Assembly: GCA_018056825.1 (NCBI GenBank)
Contig: JAGPEW010000005.1
Coordinates: forward strand, 1 to 13,984
Direction of reading: 5' to 3'
Origin: Candidatus Sordicultor aquaticus
Lineage (GTDB): Bacteria; Atribacterota; Atribacteria; Atribacterales; Caldatribacteriaceae
Length of the DNA stretch: 13,984 nucleotides
The position numbers and the translations under genes were made by a program. The notes beneath the pieces are model-generated. The model saw nothing but the letters and a program-made list of their open reading frames with translations. It made no database searches and was not told where the DNA came from. Shown piece after piece: positions 361 through 13,950 of this stretch (position 1 is the first letter of the stretch; each line of letters starts with the position of its first letter).

Positions 361-837
361 TTAAGAACGATAAACAGAATTAAGTTTTTCTTTTAGAAAT
401 GACCTTAAATATGCTACTTCATCAATAAAATGAACTTTACCTTCTTCCTGGTATGGTTTAAGCCAGTTACCAGCATCAAATCTAAATAATATTACTTCCT
501 TACCATAGTTTAAGGCCAGGGCAATTTCAGAAATAGTTCCAGCCCTACCCGGTAAAGCTACAATTATATCGCTACTTAAGATATTAATTACATTTCTAGC
601 TATCCCCATACCAGTAACTATAGGAATATCTATATACTGTGACGCCCAATGAGGTTCATCAGTTGGTAAAATACCTATGGTCATGCCACCATAATCTTTA
701 GCCCCTCTTGCTGAAGCTTCCATGATACCGGAGGCTCGACCTCCATTTAACAGAATCCACCCTTCCTGGGCAATCATGGCTCCAATTTGATAGGCATATT
801 CTTCATCTTCTGGATTTATAAATTGAGCACCACCCAT
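361..837 (-). CDS. LOG / TIGR00725-family Rossmann-fold protein (SLOG, lysine-decarboxylase-like nucleotide-binding).
   Basis: The 158-aa ORF contains GGRASGIMEASARGAKDYGGMTIGILP and PGRAGTISEIALAL, which are typical LOG/TIGR00725 motifs. Confidence 0.7.
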   Translation of the reverse strand: MGGAQFINPEDEEYAYQIGAMIAQEGWILLNGGRASGIMEASARGAKDYGGMTIGILPTDEPHWASQYIDIPIVTGMGIARNVINILSSDIIVALPGRAGTISEIALALNYGKEVILFRFDAGNWLKPYQEEGKVHFIDEVAYLRSFLKEKLNSVYRS

Positions 838-1343: not shown

Positions 1344-1583
1344 TTATCTTTTAAAAATTGAACCATCTTGGAGGCCTCGTCTTGCCGGTTTTACTCCTAT
1401 CTTCTCCGCTTTTGCCCCACACTTAGGACAAAATTTATAGTTTTGCCAAAATCTCCAGATGAAGCCACAGTGGGAACAGGCTATAGTCAGCGGTTCACCA
1501 CACTCTCGGCAATAATCGTCCCCACTACTGGCTATGGTTGCTTTACATTTAGGGCATTGAAATGCCCCGCTTTTTCCCTCCAT
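1344..1583 (-). CDS. Small double zinc-ribbon protein.
   Basis: 79 aa with two Cys4 ribbons: CPKC...CREC and CSHC...CPKC. It lies 75 bp downstream of the GvpO-like gene on the same strand. Confidence 0.65.
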   Translation of the reverse strand: MEGKSGAFQCPKCKATIASSGDDYCRECGEPLTIACSHCGFIWRFWQNYKFCPKCGAKAEKIGVKPARRGLQDGSIFKR

Positions 1584-1658
1584 TTTCCTCTTCCTTTCTT
1601 TTTTATACCTTTGTATTTCAAATATTATTTTGTTAGCCTTTCTTTATCCGTCTTCCCT

Positions 1659-1916
1659 TTATCCTTCTTCTCCAGTGTCACTGCGTTTACGCAAGCCCTT
1701 TCTTTCGTAGCTAATGAGCTCGCCATCTTCATTTAAAATAACCTCATAATTTCCTAAGAGATCCATAGCATCAGGAATAGATTTTTTTTCCACCATTTCA
1801 ATAGTAACATGCCAACCCTTTTCATCTTTAAATACTCCCGTAACTCCTGAGGGTTTTAGTTTAGAAAGTTCCATTAATTCTTTTACTGCACGTTCAATTG
1901 CCTCGTTTGCCTTCAT
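1659..1916 (-). CDS. gvpO: GvpO-like gas-vesicle protein.
   Basis: The 85-aa ORF contains GVTGVFKDEKGWHVTIEMVEKKSIPDAMDLLGNYEVILNEDGELISYERKG. This fits the GvpO pattern (DDGW.V.V.VVE...PD..D..G.YEV.LD.DGEL..Y.R). A GGGGGAG Shine-Dalgarno sits about 10 nt upstream. Confidence 0.6.
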   Translation of the reverse strand: MKANEAIERAVKELMELSKLKPSGVTGVFKDEKGWHVTIEMVEKKSIPDAMDLLGNYEVILNEDGELISYERKGLRKRSDTGEEG

Positions 1917-1968
1917 TCGGGTACCGCTCCCCCCTTCTTTTTTGGTTGGAAATTCTAATTATGTTTGA

Positions 1969-2553
1969 TTATGCTTTTATAGCTTTAATTTGTAATATAC
2001 CATTTTTATAGCTTAAATATAACTCCTGTTTAACCGGGTAGGGTAAATTTACCTCTTTATAATATTCTCGCAAGTTACCCTGAGCAGAGATAGTGAGGAC
2101 ATTACCTTTTACCTCAGTTTTAATATCTTGCTCGGCTACCCCCGGTAATTCAGCAATTATCTTTAGGTAATCCCCTTCATCGAAGATATCTATCATTACC
2201 TCTTTTTGCTGTTTTAAAGCTGAGTTTTTCGTCTTTGAAGAAGGTCTAGGATTCCCCACCGTAGTTCGAGGAGGAATAATTGTCCTTCTCCCTTCCTTGG
2301 AGTCTATTTTTTTTAAAGGAGTTACTTTTAACTGTCGGTCTACCTCTTTATTAATCACCCTTAGTCTTTCCTTAAAGGCTTCTGATTTTTCTAATTCTTT
2401 GGTAATATCTCCCAAGCCTGGAATAAACTTCCCCAGTCCGCGGACGACACTACCCGCTACTCCTTCTGCTTCCTCTTCTTTGTCTTTGGCTTCCAACTTT
2501 TTAAATTTCTCTTCTAGTTCTTTTAGCTTTTCTTTCTGGTCTTGATCTTCCAT
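1969..2553 (-). CDS. gvpH: GvpH-like protein with a C-terminal Hsp20/alpha-crystallin domain.
   Basis: The C-terminus reads IDIFDEGDYLKIIAELPGVAEQDIK...SYKNGILQIK, an alpha-crystallin-like beta-sandwich. The N-terminal half is K/E-rich. It is paralogous to the ORFs at 10400-10939 and 4180-4677. Confidence 0.6.
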   Translation of the reverse strand: MEDQDQKEKLKELEEKFKKLEAKDKEEEAEGVAGSVVRGLGKFIPGLGDITKELEKSEAFKERLRVINKEVDRQLKVTPLKKIDSKEGRRTIIPPRTTVGNPRPSSKTKNSALKQQKEVMIDIFDEGDYLKIIAELPGVAEQDIKTEVKGNVLTISAQGNLREYYKEVNLPYPVKQELYLSYKNGILQIKAIKA

Positions 2554-2578
2554 TTTATCCCTCCCCTAGGAAGTTTAA

Positions 2579-3835
2579 TTATTTACCTTTACTTCCTTTA
2601 CTTTCTTCTGCCGAGGTAGTAGGTTTATCCACAAAGCTATAAGGGGGCCAGGGCCCTGAGAAATGAACGGATAGCCCTTCCATATTATTAATTATTTCCA
2701 GCTCATTTCCCAACTCCTCAACCTTCTCTTTAGGCACCAAACAAGATAGATTCATCATCATTACCTTGTTCTTATCCACCTTCTTGGTCTTTTCCACCTT
2801 AATTTCTTCCACACATTTTTTTATTCTTCCATAAAATTCCTCAAAATATTTATCCGCCAGCTTATCCATCTCTTGTTTTGCGATATTCTCCAGCTTTTGC
2901 TTATACATATAAGCCATTCCTGGAGATTTGGAGGCCATTTCCTCTTTTATTTTTCTAATCTCCTCACTTTGTTTTGAAATTTGTTCACTTATTACTTGAG
3001 GATCGTAGGAGATCTGTATTCCATATTCCTCTTTTCCTTTAATCTTCTTTATAATTGTCTGATAACTTTCGTAATCTTCTTTTAGCCAATCCTTTACTAC
3101 CTTGGTGGAATCAGCATTATCTTTAGGCTGAATTATGGTATCAAAGCCCAGCGGAAGGATGGTATCAAATCTCTCTTTGGCTACATCGAGGACTCTTTGA
3201 TGGCTCTTTACCCACTCCTTTACCTTCTCATTATCCTCGGAGGCATAGGGCTCCAGAGGACAGTTATGAACAATAGCACATATACCTTTATAAGGGATAG
3301 TATAAACTTCACTACCCTCTATCCCTATTTTCCCTAAGCTTATTGTTTCTCCCCTATTGGCTATACCATAAAGGTATCTCCCTTCAGCTCCCCTGGAAAT
3401 TACCGGCTCTGCTTCCCTCAATTTAGCTGAACTAACTGTTTTCCTCTCTTTACTTTCACTTTTTACTGACTCGGCAGAGGGAGAAGTTTTTTTCTCAGAT
3501 TGAACCGCTGGTTCTTCTTTCTCTTTAATCTCACTTTTGTCTAACTCTTCGGGGGAGGTGAGTTTTTGGAGTTCTTCCAGAGACTTCTCTAAATTTAAAA
3601 CTTTAGCCTCTATTTTTTCTAATCTTCGAGTCAAAGAAGATTGGTCTTCTTTTTGTTCGGCTTCCTTCTTAATCTCTCCCCTTTGTAAGGCAGCTATTAA
3701 GGTCATCAAAGCGTGAAGCTCTGCCTCATCAGGTTCCTGGTTCATTACCGCCAGCATCTTTTTAATATTTAACTCATTTATCTCTTCCCCCATACTATTT
3801 AACGCTAAAGCTAAAGCTATATAGGTACATTCCAT
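2579..3835 (-). CDS. gvpL: GvpF/L-family protein with a long N-terminal extension (P1/P2-stalk-like domain plus charged linker).
   Basis: The C-terminal ~265 aa read RYLYGIANRGE...ILPLGFDTII...HFSGPWPPYSFV, which are GvpF/L hallmarks. The N-terminal ~57 aa read MECTYIALALALNSMGEEINELNIKKMLAVMNQEPDEAELHALM. A ~95-aa E/K/S-rich linker follows. Confidence 0.8.
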   Translation of the reverse strand: MECTYIALALALNSMGEEINELNIKKMLAVMNQEPDEAELHALMTLIAALQRGEIKKEAEQKEDQSSLTRRLEKIEAKVLNLEKSLEELQKLTSPEELDKSEIKEKEEPAVQSEKKTSPSAESVKSESKERKTVSSAKLREAEPVISRGAEGRYLYGIANRGETISLGKIGIEGSEVYTIPYKGICAIVHNCPLEPYASEDNEKVKEWVKSHQRVLDVAKERFDTILPLGFDTIIQPKDNADSTKVVKDWLKEDYESYQTIIKKIKGKEEYGIQISYDPQVISEQISKQSEEIRKIKEEMASKSPGMAYMYKQKLENIAKQEMDKLADKYFEEFYGRIKKCVEEIKVEKTKKVDKNKVMMMNLSCLVPKEKVEELGNELEIINNMEGLSVHFSGPWPPYSFVDKPTTSAEESKGSKGK

Positions 3836-3866
3836 TTGTACAACCCCCGTCTTCGTTAAAGTCTCC

Positions 3867-4193
3867 TCAAATACCTTGCTCCTCAGCTTCCTCTTTCCAT
3901 CTCTCCGGATTTACTATCCTATCTACTACATCATCTACTATCTCATCCAAACCATCCCTTACTGCTTGCACCGAATCGGTAATCCCTTGTTCCTCTTTTA
4001 TCTCTTCAATGGCTATATCTAAATCCATTAAAGCTTCTCCCAATCTTTCCACTTCCTCTTCAGTTAAAACTCCGCTTTCCATTCTTTTAAAACCCTGAAT
4101 CCTCAAAGCATCTCTAATTATTTCCACTAAAGCCATTACCAGACCTAATAAACCGTGTTTCAGATTATCTTCATCAACATCAAGGGTAGACAT
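3867..4193 (-). CDS. gvpK: GvpK-like gas-vesicle protein.
   Basis: 108 aa containing LLGLVMALVEIIRDALRIQGFKRMESGVLTEEEVERLGEALMDLDIAIEEI. This fits the GvpK consensus (LV.LV..VVELLR....RQA.RR.E.G.L...E.ERLG..LM.LE). Confidence 0.65.
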   Translation of the reverse strand: MSTLDVDEDNLKHGLLGLVMALVEIIRDALRIQGFKRMESGVLTEEEVERLGEALMDLDIAIEEIKEEQGITDSVQAVRDGLDEIVDDVVDRIVNPERWKEEAEEQGI

Positions 4194-4677
4194 CTTTTTT
4201 CTCCTTCTTTAAGACAATTTCCAAAATACCATTTTTATAAGATTTCTTCACTATCCTTAGAGGCTGGGATAGTTTAATACTGCCCAGGTCAGCCAAAATC
4301 ACTAAACTATCCTCCTCCTCAAAGAGGTCTACTCCTCCTTTTCTGATAACCGGGATATCCTCAGTTAGCCACCAGGAGAAGAGGATCTTTTCTCCACTCA
4401 GAGGATCGATCTTCGCCTCCTCAAACTTTACCAGGGGTCGGCCTAAGATCTTCAGGGAGGTAGGATTTATCACCTCTTTTAAGCGGCTTAATACTTCATT
4501 ATGGTTTTTTGCCCCTATTAAGTTACTCAATTCTTGGATATTAGCATATCTATTCCTATAGAGAAAGATCAATATATCTCTGCTCTTTTTGTCTAAAACC
4601 TCGGCTAATTTATTTATACCCTCTTCTTTTTCTTTATCATCTATTCCTTTTCTCTCTTTATCTTTTTTCTCTTTCAT
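4180..4677 (-). CDS. Fusion of a winged-helix (wHTH) domain and a degenerate Hsp20/GvpH-like domain.
   Basis: The middle reads SRDILIFLYRNRYANIQELSNLIGAKNHNEVLSRLKEVI, which is wHTH-like. The C-terminus reads VDLFEEEDSLVILADLGSIK...SYKNGILEIVLKK, matching the C-termini of the two other Hsp20-like ORFs. Its first 14 nt overlap the gvpK start. Its stop overlaps the start of the 4674-5075 ORF (ATGA). Confidence 0.55.
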   Translation of the reverse strand: MKEKKDKERKGIDDKEKEEGINKLAEVLDKKSRDILIFLYRNRYANIQELSNLIGAKNHNEVLSRLKEVINPTSLKILGRPLVKFEEAKIDPLSGEKILFSWWLTEDIPVIRKGGVDLFEEEDSLVILADLGSIKLSQPLRIVKKSYKNGILEIVLKKEKKDVYP

Positions 4678-5075
4678 TCTTTATATCCACACCTATAGCA
4701 ACCATTTTTCTCAAACTGTTCGGTTACTAACTTGGTCCCACATTTTGGGCATTTCTGGTAATATCCCCTCTTTTTATCAATTTCCTCCAACCCGACGGAA
4801 AGACCAGAACTTTTTTTGGCCTTAGCTAACTCAATATCCTCTTCGGTCCCTTTCCAACCACAGACAAAGCATCCCTTTTCTATTAAGTCCTTTTTTATCA
4901 GCTTTTTGCCACATTGAGGACAAAAGGCATAATACTCACTTTTTTCCAATTTTTTCTTTTCTTCTTCTTGAGCCTCTTTTACATAATCTAATACTTTATC
5001 ACCAACTCCCAGAGTGGGATCGATCCCCAAAAATCCTAAATCACTAAATCTCCCCTTCTCTTTTTTTTCACTCAT
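4674..5075 (-). CDS. Double zinc-ribbon protein.
   Basis: 133 aa with two ribbons, CPQCGKK...GCFVCGW and CPKCGTK...GCYRCG. The signature matches the ribbon tails of the GvpA-like ORFs. GGAGAAGCG precedes the ATG. Confidence 0.65.
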   Translation of the reverse strand: MSEKKEKGRFSDLGFLGIDPTLGVGDKVLDYVKEAQEEEKKKLEKSEYYAFCPQCGKKLIKKDLIEKGCFVCGWKGTEEDIELAKAKKSSGLSVGLEEIDKKRGYYQKCPKCGTKLVTEQFEKNGCYRCGYKE

Positions 5076-5153
5076 CGCTTCTCCTTTCTTTGGAGATCCT
5101 TTATCTCCTGCTCAATTACTTCAATCTCTCGCTGGCAATATTCGAAATACCAT

Positions 5154-6245
5154 TTAGCATACTTTATTCATTTTTCTCTTTACTCTCGGGCTTACCCACC
5201 CACAGTAAATACATCCTCTCTCCAAAAGTTCTTTAACCGGGCTCTCTTTTCCACAATGAGGGCAGGTCTCCCTTTCCCCTTCTTCCCCTTCCTTACTTTT
5301 AGATAAGAGCTGCTCCCATTCCTGCATTGCCTTTTTATTCCCTGAAAAATACTCTTCTCTCCCTTCGTGTCTTACCACCAGTTCTTCTTCTACCTTTAAT
5401 ATCCCGCCACCTTCTTTGGCCTTCTCTATTCTTACCCCTTTTATTTCTTTTAGCTCTACCTCTAAGGCAATACTTCCATCAAAGTCATACCACCAGAGGA
5501 GTCTTTGGTTAGTAAGATAAAGATAGCCAGCTTTCCAGGTCTTACTCTTGGTCCCACCAGGGGCAGGAAGCTCCATTAAGTACCACATCTTCTCCTTGCG
5601 CACTAATTCCTCATTTTCCACTAAGAATTTTGAGGCATTATCGTCTAATACTGGTGCCGGTATCTCTTCAAATGGAAGTCCCTTCTCTTTCATTTTCTCC
5701 TCTATAGCCTTTTTTACCGTAGAAGCATCGGTAGGGTGAAGTTTTTCTATTCCCCCACTTTTAAGGAAGAGATAAAGATAGTCTGTCTTTTTTTTGGCGA
5801 TATTCTCCTTCCTTTCCATAGCATAGCCTTTAATATCTTCATATCTTGTCTCAAAAAGTATCTCGGAAGGCTCTTTTCTATACAAGAAGACCCTTTGATT
5901 AGTAACATAAATATGTCCTGGTCTCCAATTATGCCATATCCCCTTAGAATGCCACTCTGAACCAAACATCTTGATGATAACTTCTTCACCTTCTCGCAAT
6001 AAATTATCCTTCCCCTTTCGCCTTATTTCATCTCGGGCCGCCATCCTTTGTGCTTCATCCCAATCTTTCCACATTCCATAATCTAACATAGTCTGCATCC
6101 CAGCCAAAGCAGTCTTTAATTTAATCCCCAACAGAGGAATCCCCGCTATATGAATAATCAGATCGGTATCCAACATTATACCTTTATCTAGAATCCGGTC
6201 TAAGAGGTCTACTAAGGTAGTTTCTGTATTACGAGTCGGTTCCAT
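5154..6245 (-). CDS. GvpA/J/M-like domain fused to two bacterial-PH/GRAM-like domains and a C-terminal zinc ribbon.
   Basis: The N-terminus reads [48 protein letters not shown], a GvpA-family core. Two repeats follow, [16 protein letters not shown]... and [18 protein letters not shown]..., each with the G.LY.TNQRL bPH/GRAM hallmark. The C-terminus is CPHCGKES...GCIYCGW. Confidence 0.75.
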   Translation of the reverse strand: [363 protein letters not shown]

Positions 6246-6249
6246 TTAC

Positions 6250-6630
6250 TTAATTTTCCTCCAAGGGCAGGGGCGAAATTAATTTTTTTTGGGCAGCTTT
6301 GGCCTTCGCACTAATCCATCCACACCAGGGGCAACCTTCATTCATCAACTCTTCAGCAGAAACCCGCTTACCACATTGGGGACACTCTTCCTTAGCTACC
6401 TTAGCCTCTTGCCAGGCAGCAGTTTCGTAATTTGTGCCACTGGGAAATTCCAGACCATATTTAGCCGCGGTCTCAAAAGAGGCCAGGGCTGCCCTTACCT
6501 TTACCCCTAAGAGCTCCACTCCCGCTACCGATACGGTAATATCTGCATTGATAACCAATCCCTTATCTAAGATACGGTCAATAACATCCACCAAAGTAGA
6601 AGAATCATCCCGCGAAGCTTCTAAAGCCAT
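6250..6630 (-). CDS. GvpA/J/M-like protein with a C-terminal zinc ribbon.
   Basis: The N-terminus reads [50 protein letters not shown]. Compare the GvpA consensus [45 protein letters not shown]. The C-terminus is [23 protein letters not shown]. It lies 4 bp from the preceding gene. Confidence 0.8.
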   Translation of the reverse strand: [126 protein letters not shown]

Positions 6631-6633
6631 CTT

Positions 6634-6870
6634 TTATTCCTCCTTTTTTCTAATAATCTTTAACCTTTCCACCAAATCTGCTTCCAACTGAGCGTAATCT
6701 GCTTCACTTATCTTACCTTCATCTAAGAGTAATTGAAGTTCCTTAAGCCTTTTCTTTACCCCCTCCTCGGTTACCAATCGCTCTTTATCTACTTCATTTA
6801 CAATCCCTTCCAGGACTTGCTTCCCTAATTGTAAGGGGGTCGATAATAAACTACGAATAATAAAAGCCAT
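6634..6870 (-). CDS. gvpG: GvpG-like gas-vesicle protein.
   Basis: 78 aa with a hydrophobic N-terminus (MAFIIRSLLSTPLQLG) and the GvpG-like C-terminus KELQLLLDEGKISEADYAQLEADLVERLKIIR. Confidence 0.6.
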   Translation of the reverse strand: MAFIIRSLLSTPLQLGKQVLEGIVNEVDKERLVTEEGVKKRLKELQLLLDEGKISEADYAQLEADLVERLKIIRKKEE

Positions 6871-6884
6871 AGTCTATCCTCCCT

Positions 6885-7628
6885 TTAGGTCCCTTTTAGT
6901 TTTATACTAACAAAATTATAAGGTGGAACAGGACCAACATATTTAAACTTTAATTTATCTTCATATTTTTGAGCTAACTCATTTACCCTTTGGTCGAAAT
7001 TTTTTTCTTTATCTTTATCTACTAAAAAAGAAGAATTAAGGAGCATTTCAATACTAAGAGGTTTATTAAGACGACTGTCAAAGGCTATCTCCTTAAGAGA
7101 GTTATAAATTCTTTGGCCATACTTTCTTTCCCATTCAGTAACCGTGGACTCCACCAATTTACCTACCTTAAGCTGGGTTTCTTGAGCCTCCTTTGCCGAG
7201 GAAGAAGCAATTTTTTTTCTTAACTCCTGAAAGTTCTTACCCCTACTTTCAATTTCTTTAATAACTGCCTCCCTTTCCCAAAAAACTTTTACTCCTACCT
7301 CTACTTTGCCCTGGAGTTTTTTCATTTCTTTTTTTATTTCGGGATAATTCAATTCGAGGAGCTCAATTATTTTCTCTTCATTTTCCGCGACCGTTCCAAA
7401 ACTCATAGGGAGAAGGAGGTATTGTCTCATAATCTCTTCCAGAACCCGAGTATGAGCTAAAATATTCGCTCGCGTAGGATCATATTCTTTAACTTCAGCC
7501 TCGCTTACTACTGCCGCTAAATCCTGATAATTGATCGTGTATACTTTGTTTTTTTCTATCCCCAAAAAATTAAACTCTTTTCTCTCTGGTTCCTCTATAA
7601 AACCATAAATATATCTACCTATTGGCAT
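6885..7628 (-). CDS. gvpF: GvpF/L-family protein (paralog 2).
   Basis: RYIYGFIEE...DLAAVVSE...LLPMSFGTV...VGVKVFWE...YVGPVPPYNFVSI. Confidence 0.8.
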   Translation of the reverse strand: MPIGRYIYGFIEEPERKEFNFLGIEKNKVYTINYQDLAAVVSEAEVKEYDPTRANILAHTRVLEEIMRQYLLLPMSFGTVAENEEKIIELLELNYPEIKKEMKKLQGKVEVGVKVFWEREAVIKEIESRGKNFQELRKKIASSSAKEAQETQLKVGKLVESTVTEWERKYGQRIYNSLKEIAFDSRLNKPLSIEMLLNSSFLVDKDKEKNFDQRVNELAQKYEDKLKFKYVGPVPPYNFVSIKLKGT

Positions 7629-7648: not shown

Positions 7649-9796
7649 TTATTCTAAACGGGTCTTTAAGGTCTCAATAGCCTCTGCAAAATGTTTCCTG
7701 GAAATTTTAAGGGAAGCACACTCACTTTTCCCTTCTTTTCCCTCCGTCTTCTTTTTAATAAATTCCCTGATCGCTGCCATAGAGGCTTCCCGGCAGATAG
7801 CTTCTATATCCGCCCCGCTTAAACCTTCTGTTTCTTCGGCTAATCTAGCAGGGCTTACTTCTTCCAGCGGTTTCTTCTTCAGGTGAACCTGAAAAATCTT
7901 TTCTCGGCTCTTTTTATCGGGGAGGGGTAAATCTAAAATCACGTCAAATCTCCCCGCTCTCAGGATAGAAGGGTCTATCAAATCCTTTCTATTAGTAGCG
8001 GCTAAGACTACTACTCCCTTCAGCTCCTCAATCCCATCGAGTTCAGTCAAAAATTGGCTAATTACCCTTTCGGTTACCTGAGAATCACCACTCATCCCCC
8101 GCTGGGGGACTAAAGAATCAATCTCATCTAAAAACAAAATAGTAGGAGCCGCTTGCTTGGCTTTAAGAAATACTTCTCTAACCCCCTTTTCTGATTCTCC
8201 GATATATTTGGACATAAGCTCTGGTCCCTTCACCGCTATAAAATTTACTTCACTTTCATTAGCTAAGGCTTTGGCTATTAAAGTCTTTCCACACCCTGGA
8301 GGTCCAGATAATAGAATCCCCTTAGGCGGCCTGGTATGGGCATAGTCAAATAAATCAGGATATTTTAAGGGCCACTCTACTGCCTCGATGAGGGTTTGTT
8401 TAATCTCCTCCAGTCCGCCTACATCCTCCCATTTTACATTAGGAACCTCCACAAAAACTTCCCTGATGGCTGAAGGCTCTACCTCTTTTAAAGCCTCTCT
8501 AAAATTTTCCATAGTTACCTCTAATTCCAAAAGTAACTTATAAGGAACTTCCTCTAATTCAAAATTAATATTGGGTAAGATGCTTCGCAAGGCGTTCATC
8601 GCTGCTTCTCGGCATAAAGCCTCTAAATCAGCCCCTACAAAACCATGAGTAATCTGAGCTATCCTCTCTAAATCTACATCTTTAGCTAAAGGCATTCCCC
8701 GGGTATGAATATGAAGAATTTCTAAGCGAGCCTTTTGGTCGGGGACCCGGATAGAAATTTCCCGATCAAACCTTCCTGGTCGGCGGAGAGCAGGGTCAAG
8801 AACATTAGGAATATTGGTAGCTCCAATGACTATCACTTCTCCTCGAGATTCTAATCCATCCATCAAAGCTAATAGTTGTGCCACCACTCTTTTTTCCACC
8901 TGCTTTTCTCCCCCCATTTCTTCCCGCTTGGGGGCAATAGCATCAATCTCGTCGATAAAGATTATAGCTGGGGCATTGGCTTCCGCTTCCTTAAATACAT
9001 TTCTTAAACGAGCTTCACTTTCTCCATAAAACTTTCCCATAATCTCGGGTCCACTTATATGGCTAAAATAAGCCTCTGTTTCCTGAGCCACCGCCCGAGC
9101 CATCAAAGTCTTTCCACATCCTGGAGGCCCATAGAGTAAAACCCCTTTAGGGGGTTCAATGCCCAATCTCTCAAAAATTTGGGGATATTTTAAAGGTAGC
9201 TCAATCATCTCTCTAACTCTCTGTATTTCCCGGTCCAACCCGCCAATATCCTCATAAGATATCCTCAATCTTTTCCCTTTTGCCTCTTTCTCCCCTTTTA
9301 ACTCAATAACCGTCCCGCTATGAATCAAAACTACTCCCTGGGGAATAGTAGAAACTACCATAAAGTCAAAACTGCGCGCCCCAAAGAGATTAGCTCTAAT
9401 CCTGTCCCCCGCGACAAGGGGTAGACCTTCTAACAGACTGCCTAAATATTTAGTATCCTCACCACCCCGCATCGATCTCATTAAGGCTAGAGGAGAGAGG
9501 ACTATTTTATCAGCTAAGCGGTATTCAGTCTTTTGAATGCTTACTTTTTCATCTAATCCAGCCTGAGCATTTTCTCTTAATAAGCCATCCATCTGAATAA
9601 TGGCTTTCCCTCTATCTTCGGGGTAGGCTGGCATCACTTTAGCTACCGTCCTTCTTTTGCCATAAACCTCTACTATATCCCCTATTTCCACACCTATTTT
9701 TTTAAAATCGGCGGGGTCTATCCTAACTATTGCCCTGCCTACATCTTTGGGTTTGGCTTCGGATATCTTTAGAGTTAATTCGGTTTCTTTAGTCAT
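7649..9796 (-). CDS. Cdc48/VAT/p97-like double-ring AAA+ ATPase (N-domain + D1 + D2).
   Basis: 715 aa. The N-terminal double-psi-barrel-like segment reads [35 protein letters not shown]. There are two Walker A motifs ([18 protein letters not shown] and [19 protein letters not shown]) and two Walker B motifs ([12 protein letters not shown] and [12 protein letters not shown]). SRH-like arginines are present. Confidence 0.9.
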
Positions 9797-9813: not shown

Positions 9814-10386
9814 CTATTTTTTATTATAAATTAAGTAGCTAATCTTAATATCCCGGGATAAATACTTATCTACCCGGTGTTCACTTCCTATAAATAAAAT
9901 TCCAGTCTCTCCTTCTCTTAAGGTCTTATTTATTCTCTGGGCGATATAATTATCTCTTCTTATGAGTAATTGCTTACCTCCTTTTTTTTGTTCCTTTTTA
10001 TCCGAAGAGGTGGCTATATCTTTAATATAGTTATACTCCTCAAGGAGTAGATCTTTGCTCTCTGTCCCTTCCAATTTAGCCCCTTTATTAATTAATTCTA
10101 AGATTATCTTATAATTTATGCTCCCTCTTTCGGCTAACTTCTGGACTATTTCTAACTCTTTACCACAAAGAGGCAATCCATCCTGGTATATTCTCACCTT
10201 CTCATAATTCAATTGTAGGCTTTCAATCTTATCCTTTATCCACTGCCAGAGCTCATTTACTAATTTAAGATGTTCTTCCCATTTTTCTTCCCCAAATTTT
10301 AAGACATACTCTTCCCTTAAATGAGTAGCCACCAACCCCATTTCTAGCTCCGTGTGAATGATGGGAATATAAATTAATCTCCTCAA
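9814..10386 (-). CDS. Hypothetical protein (cluster orphan, 190 aa).
   Basis: Intact ORF 17 bp from the Cdc48-like gene and 13 bp from the Hsp20-like gene. No motif recognised. K/E/I-rich. Confidence 0.5.
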
Positions 10387-10399
10387 TTTTTCTCCTGAC

Positions 10400-10939
10400 T
10401 CAAGCCTTCTCCAGTTTGATCTCTAATATCCCATTTTTGTAAGAGGGCTCCATGCTCTCTTTCTTTACCTTAGAAGGAAGCAATATTTCTTTAGCATATT
10501 TTCTATCCTTATTTTCGGCAGCTAATTTAAGAATATCTTCTTCCAGATTAATTTTAATATTCTCCTCAGCAATTCCCGGTAGTTCCGCAATTACTAAAAT
10601 ATGCTCCTTTTCATCGAATACATCGACTATTGGTTCCCTGACTTCCTCTATTACTGGACCTTTAGGTGTTTCTTTGATATTACCAAAAGTCTCGATTATA
10701 GGTTTATCCCCTACCAGAGTCCTTATGCTAAAACCATAAACCCCTTTAGCCTTTTCCGGTAACCCCTTAATCTCGCCAACTTTTTTAAATTCCCCGCCTT
10801 CTTTACTCACCTTATCTACTAAGTTAATCAAATCACCAATTCCTTTAAATATTCCTCCTAATCTCACTTTCCCCTTACTAAAATCAAATTCTATACCTTC
10901 TTTTTCTTGCTTATCCTCTTTTTCTGTCATTTTTCTCAC
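10400..10939 (-). CDS. gvpH: GvpH-like Hsp20/alpha-crystallin-domain protein (paralog 2).
   Basis: The C-terminus reads VDVFDEKEHILVIAELPGIAEENIK...SYKNGILEIKL. The N-terminal LGGIFKGIGDLINL parallels LGKFIPGLGDITKEL of the 1969-2553 ORF. Confidence 0.6.
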   Translation of the reverse strand: MRKMTEKEDKQEKEGIEFDFSKGKVRLGGIFKGIGDLINLVDKVSKEGGEFKKVGEIKGLPEKAKGVYGFSIRTLVGDKPIIETFGNIKETPKGPVIEEVREPIVDVFDEKEHILVIAELPGIAEENIKINLEEDILKLAAENKDRKYAKEILLPSKVKKESMEPSYKNGILEIKLEKA

Positions 10940-11023: not shown

Positions 11024-11794
11024 TTATTTTAAACTCAAATTAACAAAACTATATGGTGGTGTTGGCCCGATATATTTAAACCTTATCCTTTCCCCATACT
11101 GTTTATCTAATTCGCTTATCTGCTGGTCAAACTCTTTTTCCCGAGTCCTATCTACTAAAAAAACTGCATTTATCAGCATCTCATCACCAGAAGTATTATT
11201 AAGATGAAAATCATAAGAAATTCTTTTTAAGCTATTTACTATCTTTTGACCCTCTTGTTCCCTTTTTTCCTCTAAAGCCTTCTTAACCATTTTACCCAAT
11301 TTTACTTTCTCTTTATAATTTTCCTGGTCATTATCCTTCTCCTGGCCTGACCCTTTAGCTATTTTTTCTCTATAAGATTTTATTTTCTCATCTTCCTCCG
11401 CGATCTCTTGAAAAATAAACTTCATCTCTTGCCAGTAAGCCTTTACTCCTAACTCTATCTTATTATCCAGATCCCTTAATAAACCTTTAAGTTCTAAATA
11501 TCTCCTTCTTAAAAGACTGCGCACCTCTTCGGCACTACTTGCCACCGTGCAAAATCTCATCGGAAGAACAGTATAATCTCTCATTACCTCTTCCACTACC
11601 TTTTCATGAGCAATTAAATTCTCTCGACTTATTACATATTTATCCATAGGAAAGTTGCTAATTACGGCGCTAAGGTCCTCATAACCAATAGTGGATACAA
11701 TATCTCCCCGCCCACCAATGCCCAAGGGGCCAAAATTTCTTCCCTCGTTAGTCCCAATAATGCAGTAAATATATTTACCCTCCTCTATCATCAA
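11024..11794 (-). CDS. gvpF: GvpF/L-family protein (paralog 3).
   Basis: KYIYCIIG...DLSAVIS...VLPMRFCTV...ELGVKAYWQ...YIGPTPPYSFVNL. This is the strongest GvpF-like match of the three. Confidence 0.85.
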   Translation of the reverse strand: MMIEEGKYIYCIIGTNEGRNFGPLGIGGRGDIVSTIGYEDLSAVISNFPMDKYVISRENLIAHEKVVEEVMRDYTVLPMRFCTVASSAEEVRSLLRRRYLELKGLLRDLDNKIELGVKAYWQEMKFIFQEIAEEDEKIKSYREKIAKGSGQEKDNDQENYKEKVKLGKMVKKALEEKREQEGQKIVNSLKRISYDFHLNNTSGDEMLINAVFLVDRTREKEFDQQISELDKQYGERIRFKYIGPTPPYSFVNLSLK

Positions 11795-12124: not shown

Positions 12125-13042
12125 TTAGCAATATTTATTGATGAGAGCCTTTACTATATTTTTTACTTTAGTTTGACTAAGACTACTCCCTAAGCGGCTA
12201 CTCTCCGAAGCTAAAATATCCTGACAAATTTCTCTAAAAATTTTATTCTTAGCACTTACTGCGCCACCTAAAATTCCCAAACTTTTAGCGATCATGATAC
12301 AACCCCGAATAGTGGGTTTAAATTCACATTCTTCATAAGTGCGGAGTTCCCTAACGATATCTACAATTTTTTCTGCCTCAGCATAAGATAATTCAGATTT
12401 AGCTTGAGTAATAGCAATTTCAGTCTCTCGGTCAAAGTAATCTAAATCTATAGTAATCATCCTATCCCGCAAGGCATCCTGACTTCTATGAACCCCAGCA
12501 TATTCTTCGGGATTGCTGGTAAAAATGGCTACAAAGTTAGGATGAACTTTTAAATAATTTTCCTGTCCCCGCGCTACTGGTAAATCCATCATCTTTTCTT
12601 GTAAAATAGAAAGAAGGATATTATTGGCTTCAGGACGAGAACGGGTAAATTCATCATAGATAAGGGTAAAGCCATACTCTACGGCTACAGTCAAACGGTT
12701 ATCTACCCAACTCCTCTGTACATCTTCCTCCGCTTTCATCACCGAATGAATAAAATTATCTACTACTCTCCTGGTCCGATAACCGTGCTCTCCCCCCACT
12801 AAATCAGAGGTAGTAAATTCGTCATCTCCATGAATCATAATTACTGGTCGATTTATTAGATGGGCTATATGTAGGGCTAGAGTGGTCTTTCCGGTTCCCG
12901 TTGGTCCCCTAAAATGGACCGGAAAGCCTGCTCTAATATAGCCTAAGGTTCGCGTCGTTACCTCTTTGGTAAACTTTGTCTCCACAAAATTAGGCAGGGC
13001 GCGAGCTTTTAATACAGTTGCTATTTCGGCTGCCATAACCAT
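12125..13042 (-). CDS. gvpN: GvpN, a CbbQ/NirQ/MoxR-type single-domain AAA+ ATPase.
   Basis: 305 aa with Walker A FRGPTGTGKTTLALHIA and Walker B FTLIYDEFTRS. The overall length and pattern are typical of GvpN. Confidence 0.85.
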   Translation of the reverse strand: MVMAAEIATVLKARALPNFVETKFTKEVTTRTLGYIRAGFPVHFRGPTGTGKTTLALHIAHLINRPVIMIHGDDEFTTSDLVGGEHGYRTRRVVDNFIHSVMKAEEDVQRSWVDNRLTVAVEYGFTLIYDEFTRSRPEANNILLSILQEKMMDLPVARGQENYLKVHPNFVAIFTSNPEEYAGVHRSQDALRDRMITIDLDYFDRETEIAITQAKSELSYAEAEKIVDIVRELRTYEECEFKPTIRGCIMIAKSLGILGGAVSAKNKIFREICQDILASESSRLGSSLSQTKVKNIVKALINKYC

Positions 13043-13581: not shown

Positions 13582-13950
13582 CTAAAGAGGGTAATACAAA
13601 TTATCTTCTTTCCTGATCTTGTTTTCTTCTACCAACTCTTTAGTTATGGTTATATACCATCTCCAATCTTTACCTATTTCTGCACCAATTTCCACAAGCT
13701 TTATCCCCTCAGGATGAGATTTTATTAAATTTAATACCTGCTCTTTCTCTTTCTCGGAGGTTTCCTCCCCCATCTTCTCCACTTTTTCTAGAACTTCTTC
13801 TTTTGTTTTTTTACCTTCAGAAACTGTAGAAACCGGCTTTACCCCTCTTCTCTTTTCTTGCAGACTAGAGGTCAACTCTTGCCAGGAAGCAGACATCTCC
13901 TTTAGATCAGCCCTTATCTCCTCTTGAACTTTATGAAAATCACTTAACAT
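13582..13950 (-). CDS. Putative winged-helix DNA-binding protein. It may be 5'-truncated by the window, since the frame stays open to 13984.
   Basis: The C-terminus reads EQVLNLIKSHPEGIKLVEIGAEIGKDWRWYITITKELVEENKI, which is wHTH-like. There is no in-frame stop between the first ATG (13950) and the window end. Confidence 0.45.
   Translation of the reverse strand: MLSDFHKVQEEIRADLKEMSASWQELTSSLQEKRRGVKPVSTVSEGKKTKEEVLEKVEKMGEETSEKEKEQVLNLIKSHPEGIKLVEIGAEIGKDWRWYITITKELVEENKIRKEDNLYYPL

Follow-up and report, generated by a model that had tools for sequence, protein, structure and literature searches.

A Cdc48-family AAA+ ATPase as a very probably dedicated component of a widespread class of bacterial gas-vesicle gene clusters

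Introduction

Why should a gas-vesicle (gvp) gene cluster encode a Cdc48-type unfoldase beside its canonical ATPase, GvpN? The question is raised by contig JAGPEW010000005.1 of the atribacterotal bacterium Candidatus Sordicultor aquaticus, the whole of which (13,984 bp) was analysed and is referred to here as the window. At positions 7649..9796 of its minus strand, a gene for a Cdc48/VAT-like double AAA+ ATPase is embedded among gvp genes. In the available part of a review of the field, GvpN is the sole AAA+ ATPase among Gvp proteins (PMC9501494). The original prediction, made from the sequence of the window, held that gvp clusters normally carry GvpN only. This holds for the model clusters in that part of the review, but not for the large environmental class described below, in which Cdc48 is the rule.

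Here we report that Cdc48 is very probably a dedicated component of these clusters. The apparent novelty lies in a large class of gvp clusters that combine GvpN with a dedicated Cdc48, a small heat-shock protein (sHsp), often an ArsA/Get3-type ATPase, and a conserved protein of 190 amino acids (aa). Our literature search found no description of Cdc48 in a gvp cluster, an earlier mention elsewhere being possible.

Results

The gvp-linked protein is a complete Cdc48-family member

The prediction of a full N-D1-D2 Cdc48 homologue was borne out by family models, domain content and structural matches. The protein scored 974.7 bits against the NCBIfam model TIGR01243 ('CDC48 family AAA ATPase'; curated cut-off 802.65), with aa 8-712 of 715 aligned. 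Pfam recognised CDC48_N (PF02359, aa 8-91, E 1e-27, 96.5 bits against a cut-off of 35.1), CDC48_2 (PF02933, aa 112-172, 44.1 bits against a cut-off of 22.4), two AAA cassettes (E 7e-92) and two AAA_lid_3 domains. Among solved structures, VAT, the Thermoplasma acidophilum unfoldase, comes closest (5g4f, 776 bits), with eukaryotic p97/Cdc48 at about 610-650 bits. The gene and its parts are as follows.

7649..9796, minus strand: Cdc48/VAT-family double-ring AAA+ ATPase, 715 aa, ATG start
9281..9775, minus strand: N domain, aa 8-172, double-psi barrel and beta-clam, substrate/adaptor-binding (PF02359 and PF02933)
8558..9142, minus strand: D1 AAA cassette and lid, aa 219-413 (Pfam boundaries)
D1 motifs: Walker A GPPGCGKT, aa 223-230; pore loop K-F-Y-G, aa 255-258; Walker B DE, aa 282-283; arginine fingers RRPGRFDRE, aa 338-346
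7727..8317, minus strand: D2 AAA cassette and lid, aa ~494-690 (approximate boundaries, from the VAT alignment)
D2 motifs: Walker A, aa 498-505; pore loop K-Y-I-G, aa 530-533; Walker B DE, aa 557-558; arginine-finger region, aa 613-618

Neither ring shows any variation in the Walker A lysine, the Walker B Asp-Glu pair or the arginine fingers among 81 gvp-linked orthologs. The D1 pore loop reads K-[F/Y/W]-Y-G in all 81 of them and the D2 pore loop [Y/W/F]-[V/I/L]-G, again in 81 of 81, while the N domain is the least conserved domain (mean column identity 0.66). In the structure alignment VAT shows YY at the D1 pore-loop position; p97 has a non-aromatic loop there. Because the ATPase residues are invariant in both rings and the pore loops are aromatic, the gvp-linked Cdc48 should be an autonomous threading unfoldase rather than a degenerate scaffold. 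From the full-length, high-scoring alignment to VAT we infer a hexameric double ring with ATP-dependent unfoldase activity.

A C-terminal proteasome-docking tail of the HbYX type was not conserved in any of 85 ortholog C-termini, the window protein ending in LKTRLE and the set having no conserved penultimate tyrosine after a hydrophobic residue; docking to a 20S proteasome is therefore not expected. Most of the phyla concerned are not known to possess a 20S proteasome. By every criterion that could be tested, the gvp-linked Cdc48 is an ordinary member of the Cdc48 family.

Cdc48 is kept inside gas-vesicle clusters across more than 15 phyla

Whether Cdc48 is conserved in gvp clusters or is a housekeeping copy was the check that the original prediction had called for, and comparison of related loci speaks clearly for the former. 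Six homologs of 97, 83, 76, 75, 72 and 72% identity, located by exact-sequence look-up, all lie inside gvp clusters. Their hosts are Atribacteria-like, Aerophobetes, Chloroflexi and Dehalococcoidales genomes (one locus is on an 872-kb contig), and the local order is GvpN-(GvpF)-Hsp20-Cdc48-GvpF-GvpG-GvpJ.

A scan of one genome per GTDB species, of which the best 80 loci (65-85% identity) were kept, extended this pattern. The closest loci are those of Atribacterota, at 83-85% identity. An archaeal host, which the low GC content and the 'archaeal Hsp20' match of the window had suggested, was rejected on this ground and because the contig belongs to a Candidatus Atribacteria metagenome assembly. 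The hosts span more than 15 phyla and comprise Atribacterota, Aerophobetes, Dehalococcoidia, Acetothermia, Clostridia, Latescibacterota, Nitrospirota, Brocadiaceae/Scalindua, Acidobacteriota, Cloacimonetes, Desulfobacterota, Aminicenantes, Omnitrophota, Planctomycetota, Bacteroidota, Actinomycetota, Sumerlaeota and Marinimicrobia. When the non-redundant loci of the closest Cdc48 relatives were searched by tblastn with the Gvp proteins of the window, core gvp genes were found at 78 of 82. The other four comprise two short contigs (2.4 kb and 3.8 kb), a locus in which 428 nucleotides (nt) separate the Cdc48 start from the end of the contig, and a locus of Scalindua that extends only 1.5 kb downstream. 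The usual order is GvpN-(GvpF)-Hsp20-(ArsA or 190-aa gene)-Cdc48-GvpF; Hsp20 is the closest gene matched upstream of Cdc48 in 61 of the 82 loci, and GvpF/L the closest downstream in 68.

The association was also seen from the opposite side. A metagenome scan anchored on GvpA gave 22 loci that extend 8 kb or more beyond gvpA on its downstream side; 20 of them carry a Cdc48 homolog (54-85% identity) in the cluster, with the core order of Hsp20, Cdc48 and GvpF preserved. Both scans were anchored on close relatives, so that the counts refer to this class and leave distant types of gvp cluster outside. One metagenome-assembled genome (MAG) carries two Cdc48 copies (loci L033 and L049), both gvp-linked. 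A single, positionally variable housekeeping Cdc48, which the original prediction had named as the finding that would speak against it, was not seen in the compared loci.

Among PLSDB plasmids, tblastn returned only matches below 60% identity, none of the gvp-linked type. A cultured host was not found: the protein search from a Desulfobacteraceae ortholog (L053) gave MAG or metagenome proteins only among the matches listed. Hurt et al. reportedly expressed a 23.4-kb gvp cluster of Desulfobacterium vacuolatum DSM 3385 (FWXY01000008:1268-24724) in E. coli, where it yields vesicles.

Two loci depart from the usual arrangement. At L093:15911-18107, on a 1.16-Mb contig, Cdc48 is split into a 171-aa N-domain open reading frame (ORF) and a 532-aa D1-D2 ORF, for which a frameshift, pseudogene formation, misassembly or a true split of the gene could account. 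In one Dehalococcoidia cluster, a gene for a four-helix bundle of the 23S-rRNA-intervening-sequence/bAvd-like type (L015:9514-9975) lies between Hsp20 and Cdc48.

Phylogeny and co-divergence of Cdc48 with its cluster

In a neighbour-joining tree, the 81 gvp-linked sequences (at least 65% identity) form one clade with a short stem, and none of 150 library representatives falls inside it. These were the best 150 representatives from a set of 1.84 billion proteins clustered at 50% identity, a library too coarse to delimit the clade by itself. The tree was enlarged with 19 gvpA-anchored sequences: 13 at about 64% identity or more, which together with the 81 make up a 94-sequence core, and six divergent ones at 56-60%. 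Three of the nearest out-of-group relatives, P0292, P0306 and a Dadabacteria/Thermodesulfobacteriota cluster of P0245/P0405, lie amid unrelated genes. A boundary of the clade at 65% identity was rejected: the gvpA-anchored scan contains gvp-linked copies down to about 54-60%, and identity alone therefore does not define membership.

Distance matrices of cluster proteins were compared with that of Cdc48 (mirror-tree). The correlation was 0.68 for Hsp20, 0.60 for GvpF, 0.51 for GvpN and 0.11 for the ultra-conserved GvpA. These values are consistent with co-inheritance of a module, with species phylogeny and mis-assignment of paralogs also contributing.

Organisation of the window operon

Every substantial ORF of the window lies on the minus strand. 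The accessory set GvpN, GvpF/L, GvpG, GvpJ/M, GvpK and GvpO is present in full in one operon with short gaps, and the predicted company of Cdc48 and GvpN in one cluster was confirmed by TIGR02640. Transcription would read two unannotated ORFs, GvpN, a 103-aa ORF, GvpF/L, Hsp20, the 190-aa ORF, Cdc48, GvpF/L, GvpG and the GvpJ-like gene, followed by the GvpM-like fusion, the zinc-ribbon protein, an Hsp20-like gene, GvpK, GvpL, a further Hsp20-like gene, GvpO, the double zinc ribbon and SLOG. The annotated genes other than Cdc48 are listed in that order.

12125..13042, minus strand: GvpN, canonical MoxR/CbbQ-type AAA+ of gas-vesicle clusters (TIGR02640, 355.5 bits against a cut-off of 266.8)
11024..11794, minus strand: GvpF/L paralog upstream of Hsp20 (PF06386, E 7e-68)
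10400..10939, minus strand: Hsp20/alpha-crystallin sHsp (PF00011, E 1.5e-8; NF041800 'archaeal Hsp20', 149 bits against a cut-off of 140)
9814..10386, minus strand: 190-aa ORF ('u190') directly upstream of Cdc48, without family annotation
6885..7628, minus strand: GvpF/L paralog directly downstream of Cdc48 (PF06386, E 1e-70; strong ribosome-binding site)
6634..6870, minus strand: GvpG
6250..6630, minus strand: GvpJ-like protein (GvpA family) with zinc ribbon
5154..6245, minus strand: GvpM-like protein (GvpA family) with two PH/GRAM-like domains and a zinc ribbon, 363 aa
4674..5075, minus strand: double zinc-ribbon protein, 133 aa
4180..4677, minus strand: Hsp20-like protein
3867..4193, minus strand: GvpK
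2579..3835, minus strand: GvpL (GvpF/L family)
1969..2553, minus strand: Hsp20-like protein
1659..1916, minus strand: GvpO
1344..1583, minus strand: double zinc ribbon
361..837, minus strand: SLOG cluster-4 protein (LOG/lysine-decarboxylase-like) at the distal operon end, also present in L001, not in other related loci

Hsp20 and the 190-aa ORF are separated by 13 nt, the latter and Cdc48 by 17 nt, and Cdc48 and GvpF/L by 20 nt, with a Shine-Dalgarno sequence at each; that of Cdc48 is GGAG, about 13 nt 5' of the ATG. The original prediction had placed Cdc48 within 20 bp of both a GvpF/L and an Hsp20 paralog. This is right for the downstream GvpF/L, but the immediate upstream neighbour is the 190-aa ORF, with Hsp20 one gene further. 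Scans of the window for consensus promoters, terminators and sigma-54 promoters (TGGCAC-N5-TTGCW) gave no signal above chance, which leaves the short gaps and the ribosome-binding sites as the basis for an operon. Short gaps with ribosome-binding sites, and no promoter or terminator signal above chance, would fit co-transcription.

The window contains no gvpA gene; the contig stops upstream of GvpN, within the upstream part of the cluster. A 67-aa GvpA occupies the matching upstream position in L001, whose Cdc48 is 97% identical, and in most related loci. The gene order of 1344..6870 is repeated in L001; L001:3960-5914, with gvpA and the first accessory genes, has no counterpart in the window. 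A longer gene is probably truncated here, the 122-aa ORF at 13582..13950 being its 3' part.

Three further features of the operon were observed. It encodes three Hsp20/alpha-crystallin-like paralogs, of which the first alone exceeds family cut-offs and the other two are divergent. A 23-residue zinc ribbon (CPxCG-x12-GCxxCG[WY]) ends both the GvpJ-like protein and the GvpM-like fusion, and two copies of it are present in the 133-aa protein. The ribbon may serve as a common handle or as a tag for interaction. The product of 5154..6245 joins an N-terminal GvpM/GvpA-family domain, weak Vps36/GRAM/bPH matches and a C-terminal zinc ribbon, an unusual composition for the GvpA family.

Chaperone genes next to Cdc48

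A space of more than 400 nt separates the Hsp20 and Cdc48 matches in 29 loci, several of which hold the 190-aa gene there. In about 20 loci, from Nitrospirota, Cloacimonetes, Latescibacter, Sumerlaeota, Omnitrophota, Bacteroidota, Planctomycetota and some Desulfobacterota, the space is filled by an ORF of 283-337 aa, and all six that were tested matched ArsA_ATPase (PF02374, E 1e-74 to 1e-90). These six encode single-domain ArsA/Get3-type ATPases of 311-337 aa.

L047:9063-9998
L061:9000-9944
L076:5204-6139
L036:8913-9926
L041:1629-2597
L073:8893-9861

Hsp20, ArsA and Cdc48 are thus a chaperone triad in many phyla; the window is without ArsA. Fusions of GvpF/L to a DnaJ J-domain were found directly downstream of Cdc48 at three loci.

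L002:12187-13224
L094:17385-18416
L093:19928-20624

Such fusions imply that Hsp70 is recruited to the same step.

Recruitment of ATPases and sHsps to gvp clusters has a precedent, in that Castillo and Saier (2010) noted that gvp clusters may hold ArsA homologs and Hsp20, for which they proposed a role in energising biogenesis (PMC2963123, available text). The clusters are alike in pairing an extra non-Gvp ATPase with Hsp20. They differ in that the ArsA described there is a two-domain protein of about 640 aa and that found beside Cdc48 here has a single domain. The available text of PMC2963123 makes no mention of Cdc48, its 'AAA' referring to GvpN and the superfamily.

The conserved 190-aa protein

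About 490 homologs of the 190-aa protein were found, and those bearing a name among the matches listed are all annotated as hypothetical. Its gene is present in at least 49 of the Cdc48-gvp loci. The putative fold is that of the ChaN/TraB/Tiki/erythromycin-esterase superfamily; PF01963, below threshold and recurrent in three family members, agrees with this assignment. H11, E77, R144 and H170 are invariant in the family. The gene is a neighbour of Cdc48 in several lineages, Atribacterota and Aerophobetes among them. In Dehalococcoidia it occupies the distant end of the cluster, and in L093 and L094 it lies upstream of gvpA with single-domain response regulators on both sides. Its product could work with the unfoldase as a hydrolase, serve as an adaptor or belong to a regulatory circuit.

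Regulators around the clusters

No DNA-binding regulator family was detected by Pfam or NCBIfam in any ORF of the window. Clusters of this class are flanked by genes for a histidine kinase, an NtrC-type sigma-54 activator and single-domain response regulators, at the positions listed below, and two cluster flanks additionally hold an rpoN-like gene (Sigma54_DBD).

L001:293-3855
L093:6918-11545
L094:6959-11278
L002:367-1644
L008:657-1886

Response-regulator or sigma-54-activator genes lie directly 3' of Cdc48 in L093 and L094, and 5' of the 190-aa gene in L045. These findings suggest sigma-54-dependent control of the clusters; the window is without the gvpA-proximal region and has no detectable sigma-54 promoter.

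In the Omnitrophota locus L094, genes for a CD-NTase and a Cap15-like protein, a CBASS-type defence pair, are situated just upstream of the gvp regulatory genes (L094:985-2499). They are probably unrelated neighbours.

Discussion

A candidate quality-control module for gas-vesicle subunits

Gene context favours a chaperone or quality-control role of Cdc48 over the alternatives, because its constant partner is an sHsp, ArsA/Get3-type ATPases and J-domain-GvpF fusions recur beside it, and a proteasome-docking tail is lacking. From sequence and neighbourhood, we see about an even chance that the sHsp and Cdc48 constitute a cluster-specific holdase/unfoldase module of quality control, which would keep GvpA/J/M-type subunits competent for assembly or return them to that state. 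The sHsp, with ArsA where present, would capture aggregation-prone and very hydrophobic subunits of the GvpA/J/M family. The N domains of the Cdc48 hexamer would then bind these subunits, either directly or through the sHsp or the 190-aa neighbour, and VAT-like aromatic pore loops would thread them through the D1/D2 pore. Subunits might in this way be pulled from off-pathway aggregates or mis-built shell intermediates and released unfolded, to be re-captured by GvpF/L-type chaperones for correct insertion. Such a module would act during vesicle synthesis, uncoupled from the 20S proteasome.

The proposed logic, in which a holdase is combined with a threading motor, is that of sHsp-ClpB/Hsp104 disaggregation and of the archaeal Hsp20-Cdc48 heat-shock pair. 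In the ClpB/Hsp104 system, clients prone to aggregation are kept sequestered by a holdase until a double-ring AAA+ motor pulls them out by threading. Cdc48 differs in belonging to the classic AAA clade rather than to Clp/Hsp100 and in lacking a DnaK-binding M-domain, and the module proposed here would be client-specific and linked to an organelle. With VAT and archaeal Cdc48, the window protein shares the N-D1-D2 architecture, two catalytically complete rings and the aromatic pair of the D1 pore loop. It is unlike them in its bacterial host, its gas-vesicle operon and its lack of a conserved HbYX tail; its putative clients are organelle shell proteins instead of general proteasome clients. GvpN is likewise an AAA+ ATPase of the same operon, and both presumably power steps of vesicle biogenesis. 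However, GvpN is a single-ring protein of the MoxR/CbbQ type (AAA_5) without an N domain or threading pore loops, and the two are not paralogs. Properties of Gvp proteins described in the available part of PMC9501494 bear on the same step: GvpA, GvpJ and GvpM form inclusion bodies when chaperones are absent, and monomeric GvpA is bound by GvpF.

Several points weigh against a dedicated quality-control role. The designation of Gvp proteins as substrates of Cdc48 is pure inference from gene neighbourhood. To our knowledge, the model clusters of Halobacterium, Anabaena, B. megaterium and Serratia build vesicles without any Cdc48, so that GvpA assembly has no intrinsic need of it. Recycling of collapsed vesicles would agree just as well with co-transcription with assembly genes, the hydrolase-superfamily fold of the 190-aa neighbour could mean that unfolding feeds degradation instead of refolding, and the regulators found beside Cdc48 or the 190-aa gene in some clusters leave a regulatory role open. 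Support for the clade is moderate: the 94-sequence core excludes all 91 full-length representatives in 16 of 25 neighbour-joining bootstraps. When the six divergent gvp-linked members are added, P0292 and P0306, which are not gvp-linked, are placed within the clade in most cases and P0263 in some. Inspection of the P0306 sequence showed degenerate pore loops, and P0292 has one AAA cassette only in its Pfam record. There is moderate support for a single gvp-associated Cdc48 lineage from which a few copies may have escaped and decayed.

Alternative roles of the Cdc48 gene

The same intact threading machinery, with its VAT-like aromatic pore loops, could serve active disassembly or recycling. Cdc48 would then act as a segregase that extracts GvpA from mature or pressure-collapsed shells, lowering buoyancy or recovering the protein spent on collapsed vesicles, which cannot be reinflated. 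Cdc48/p97 proteins are the classic extractors of subunits from stable assemblies. The hosts are mostly anaerobes of sediment, groundwater and deep water, for which hydrostatic collapse is plausible, and the available text of PMC9501494 mentions no enzyme for gas-vesicle removal. Against this, the Cdc48 gene lies within the biosynthetic operon, 13-20 nt from assembly genes, and would therefore be produced while vesicles are being built. Its partners are holdase-type chaperones (the sHsp, ArsA and the J-domain fusions) rather than proteases, and no independent promoter signal was found for it. We consider disassembly unlikely. It is equally doubtful that the Hsp20-Cdc48 pair, possibly together with the 190-aa protein, represents the first dedicated ATP-driven machine for dismantling gas vesicles, which would yield GvpA for re-use or destruction.

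Unfolding by Cdc48 might instead deliver Gvp proteins to the 190-aa protein, acting as a peptidase in an unfoldase-hydrolase pair independent of the proteasome. We regard this as improbable. The 190-aa gene is distant from Cdc48 in many clusters, its place being terminal or, upstream of gvpA, between response regulators. Its superfamily also includes esterases and a haem-binding protein, and peptidase activity is therefore not implied.

A regulatory unfoldase, setting the level of a response regulator or a sigma-54 activator, has a precedent in haloarchaea, where the NTP-binding domain of GvpD is needed for loss of the activator GvpE (PMC9501494, available part). In both cases an NTP-binding protein of the gvp cluster would cause the loss of another cluster protein, and regulator genes do stand next to Cdc48 in L093 and L094 and before the 190-aa gene in L045. 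By contrast, GvpD lies outside the Cdc48 family and has a transcription activator as its target, the conserved neighbours of Cdc48 are Hsp20 and GvpF rather than regulators, and the window operon contains no regulator; this role is quite improbable.

A housekeeping or general-stress Hsp20-Cdc48 pair that merely resides in or hitch-hikes with the cluster is highly improbable, as its position is kept in more than 15 phyla and in the gvpA-anchored loci, its divergence co-varies with that of cluster genes, its nearest non-cluster relatives are separate or degenerate lineages, and both copies of the MAG with two are gvp-linked. A general pairing of this kind does exist. In a Natrinema plasmid, the Hsp20 gene abuts Cdc48 with no gvp feature annotated under the match. 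Hsp20 and Cdc48 are the core targets of the archaeal heat-shock regulators Phr and HSR1, hsp20 being in an operon with hsr1 (PMC5852551 and PMC9133787, available parts). The window resembles these systems in its pairing of sHsp with Cdc48, and its Hsp20 passes the NCBIfam 'archaeal Hsp20' cut-off. It differs from what is described there in that no winged-helix regulator of the Phr/HSR1 type was detected in the window, the pair stands among bacterial gvp genes, and related gvp clusters are flanked by two-component regulators of the sigma-54 type.

Implications for gas-vesicle biology

These clusters touch two open questions, namely how the extremely hydrophobic GvpA shell is assembled without aggregation and how cells remove vesicles. 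If disassembly were true, it would provide mostly anaerobic bacteria of deep habitats with an enzymatic means of lowering buoyancy, and biotechnology with a genetically encoded 'eraser' for acoustic reporter vesicles.

A quality-control role of the sHsp and Cdc48 would bear on heterologous expression. In the available text of the respective reports, heterologous gvp clusters often fail (PMC10344784) or provoke proteotoxic stress (PMC12848028). A requirement for helpers of this kind is a possible reason for the failure or toxicity of many clusters cloned in E. coli, and helper genes for the engineering of acoustic reporters could result. The gvp-linked protein is also among the few bacterial Cdc48s with an obvious set of candidate substrates. 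Cdc48 and its dedicated sHsp, often accompanied by a Get3-like ATPase, constitute a second, chaperone-rich architecture of gvp clusters in more than 15 bacterial phyla, and they are testable candidates for the missing proteostasis or turnover step of gas vesicles.

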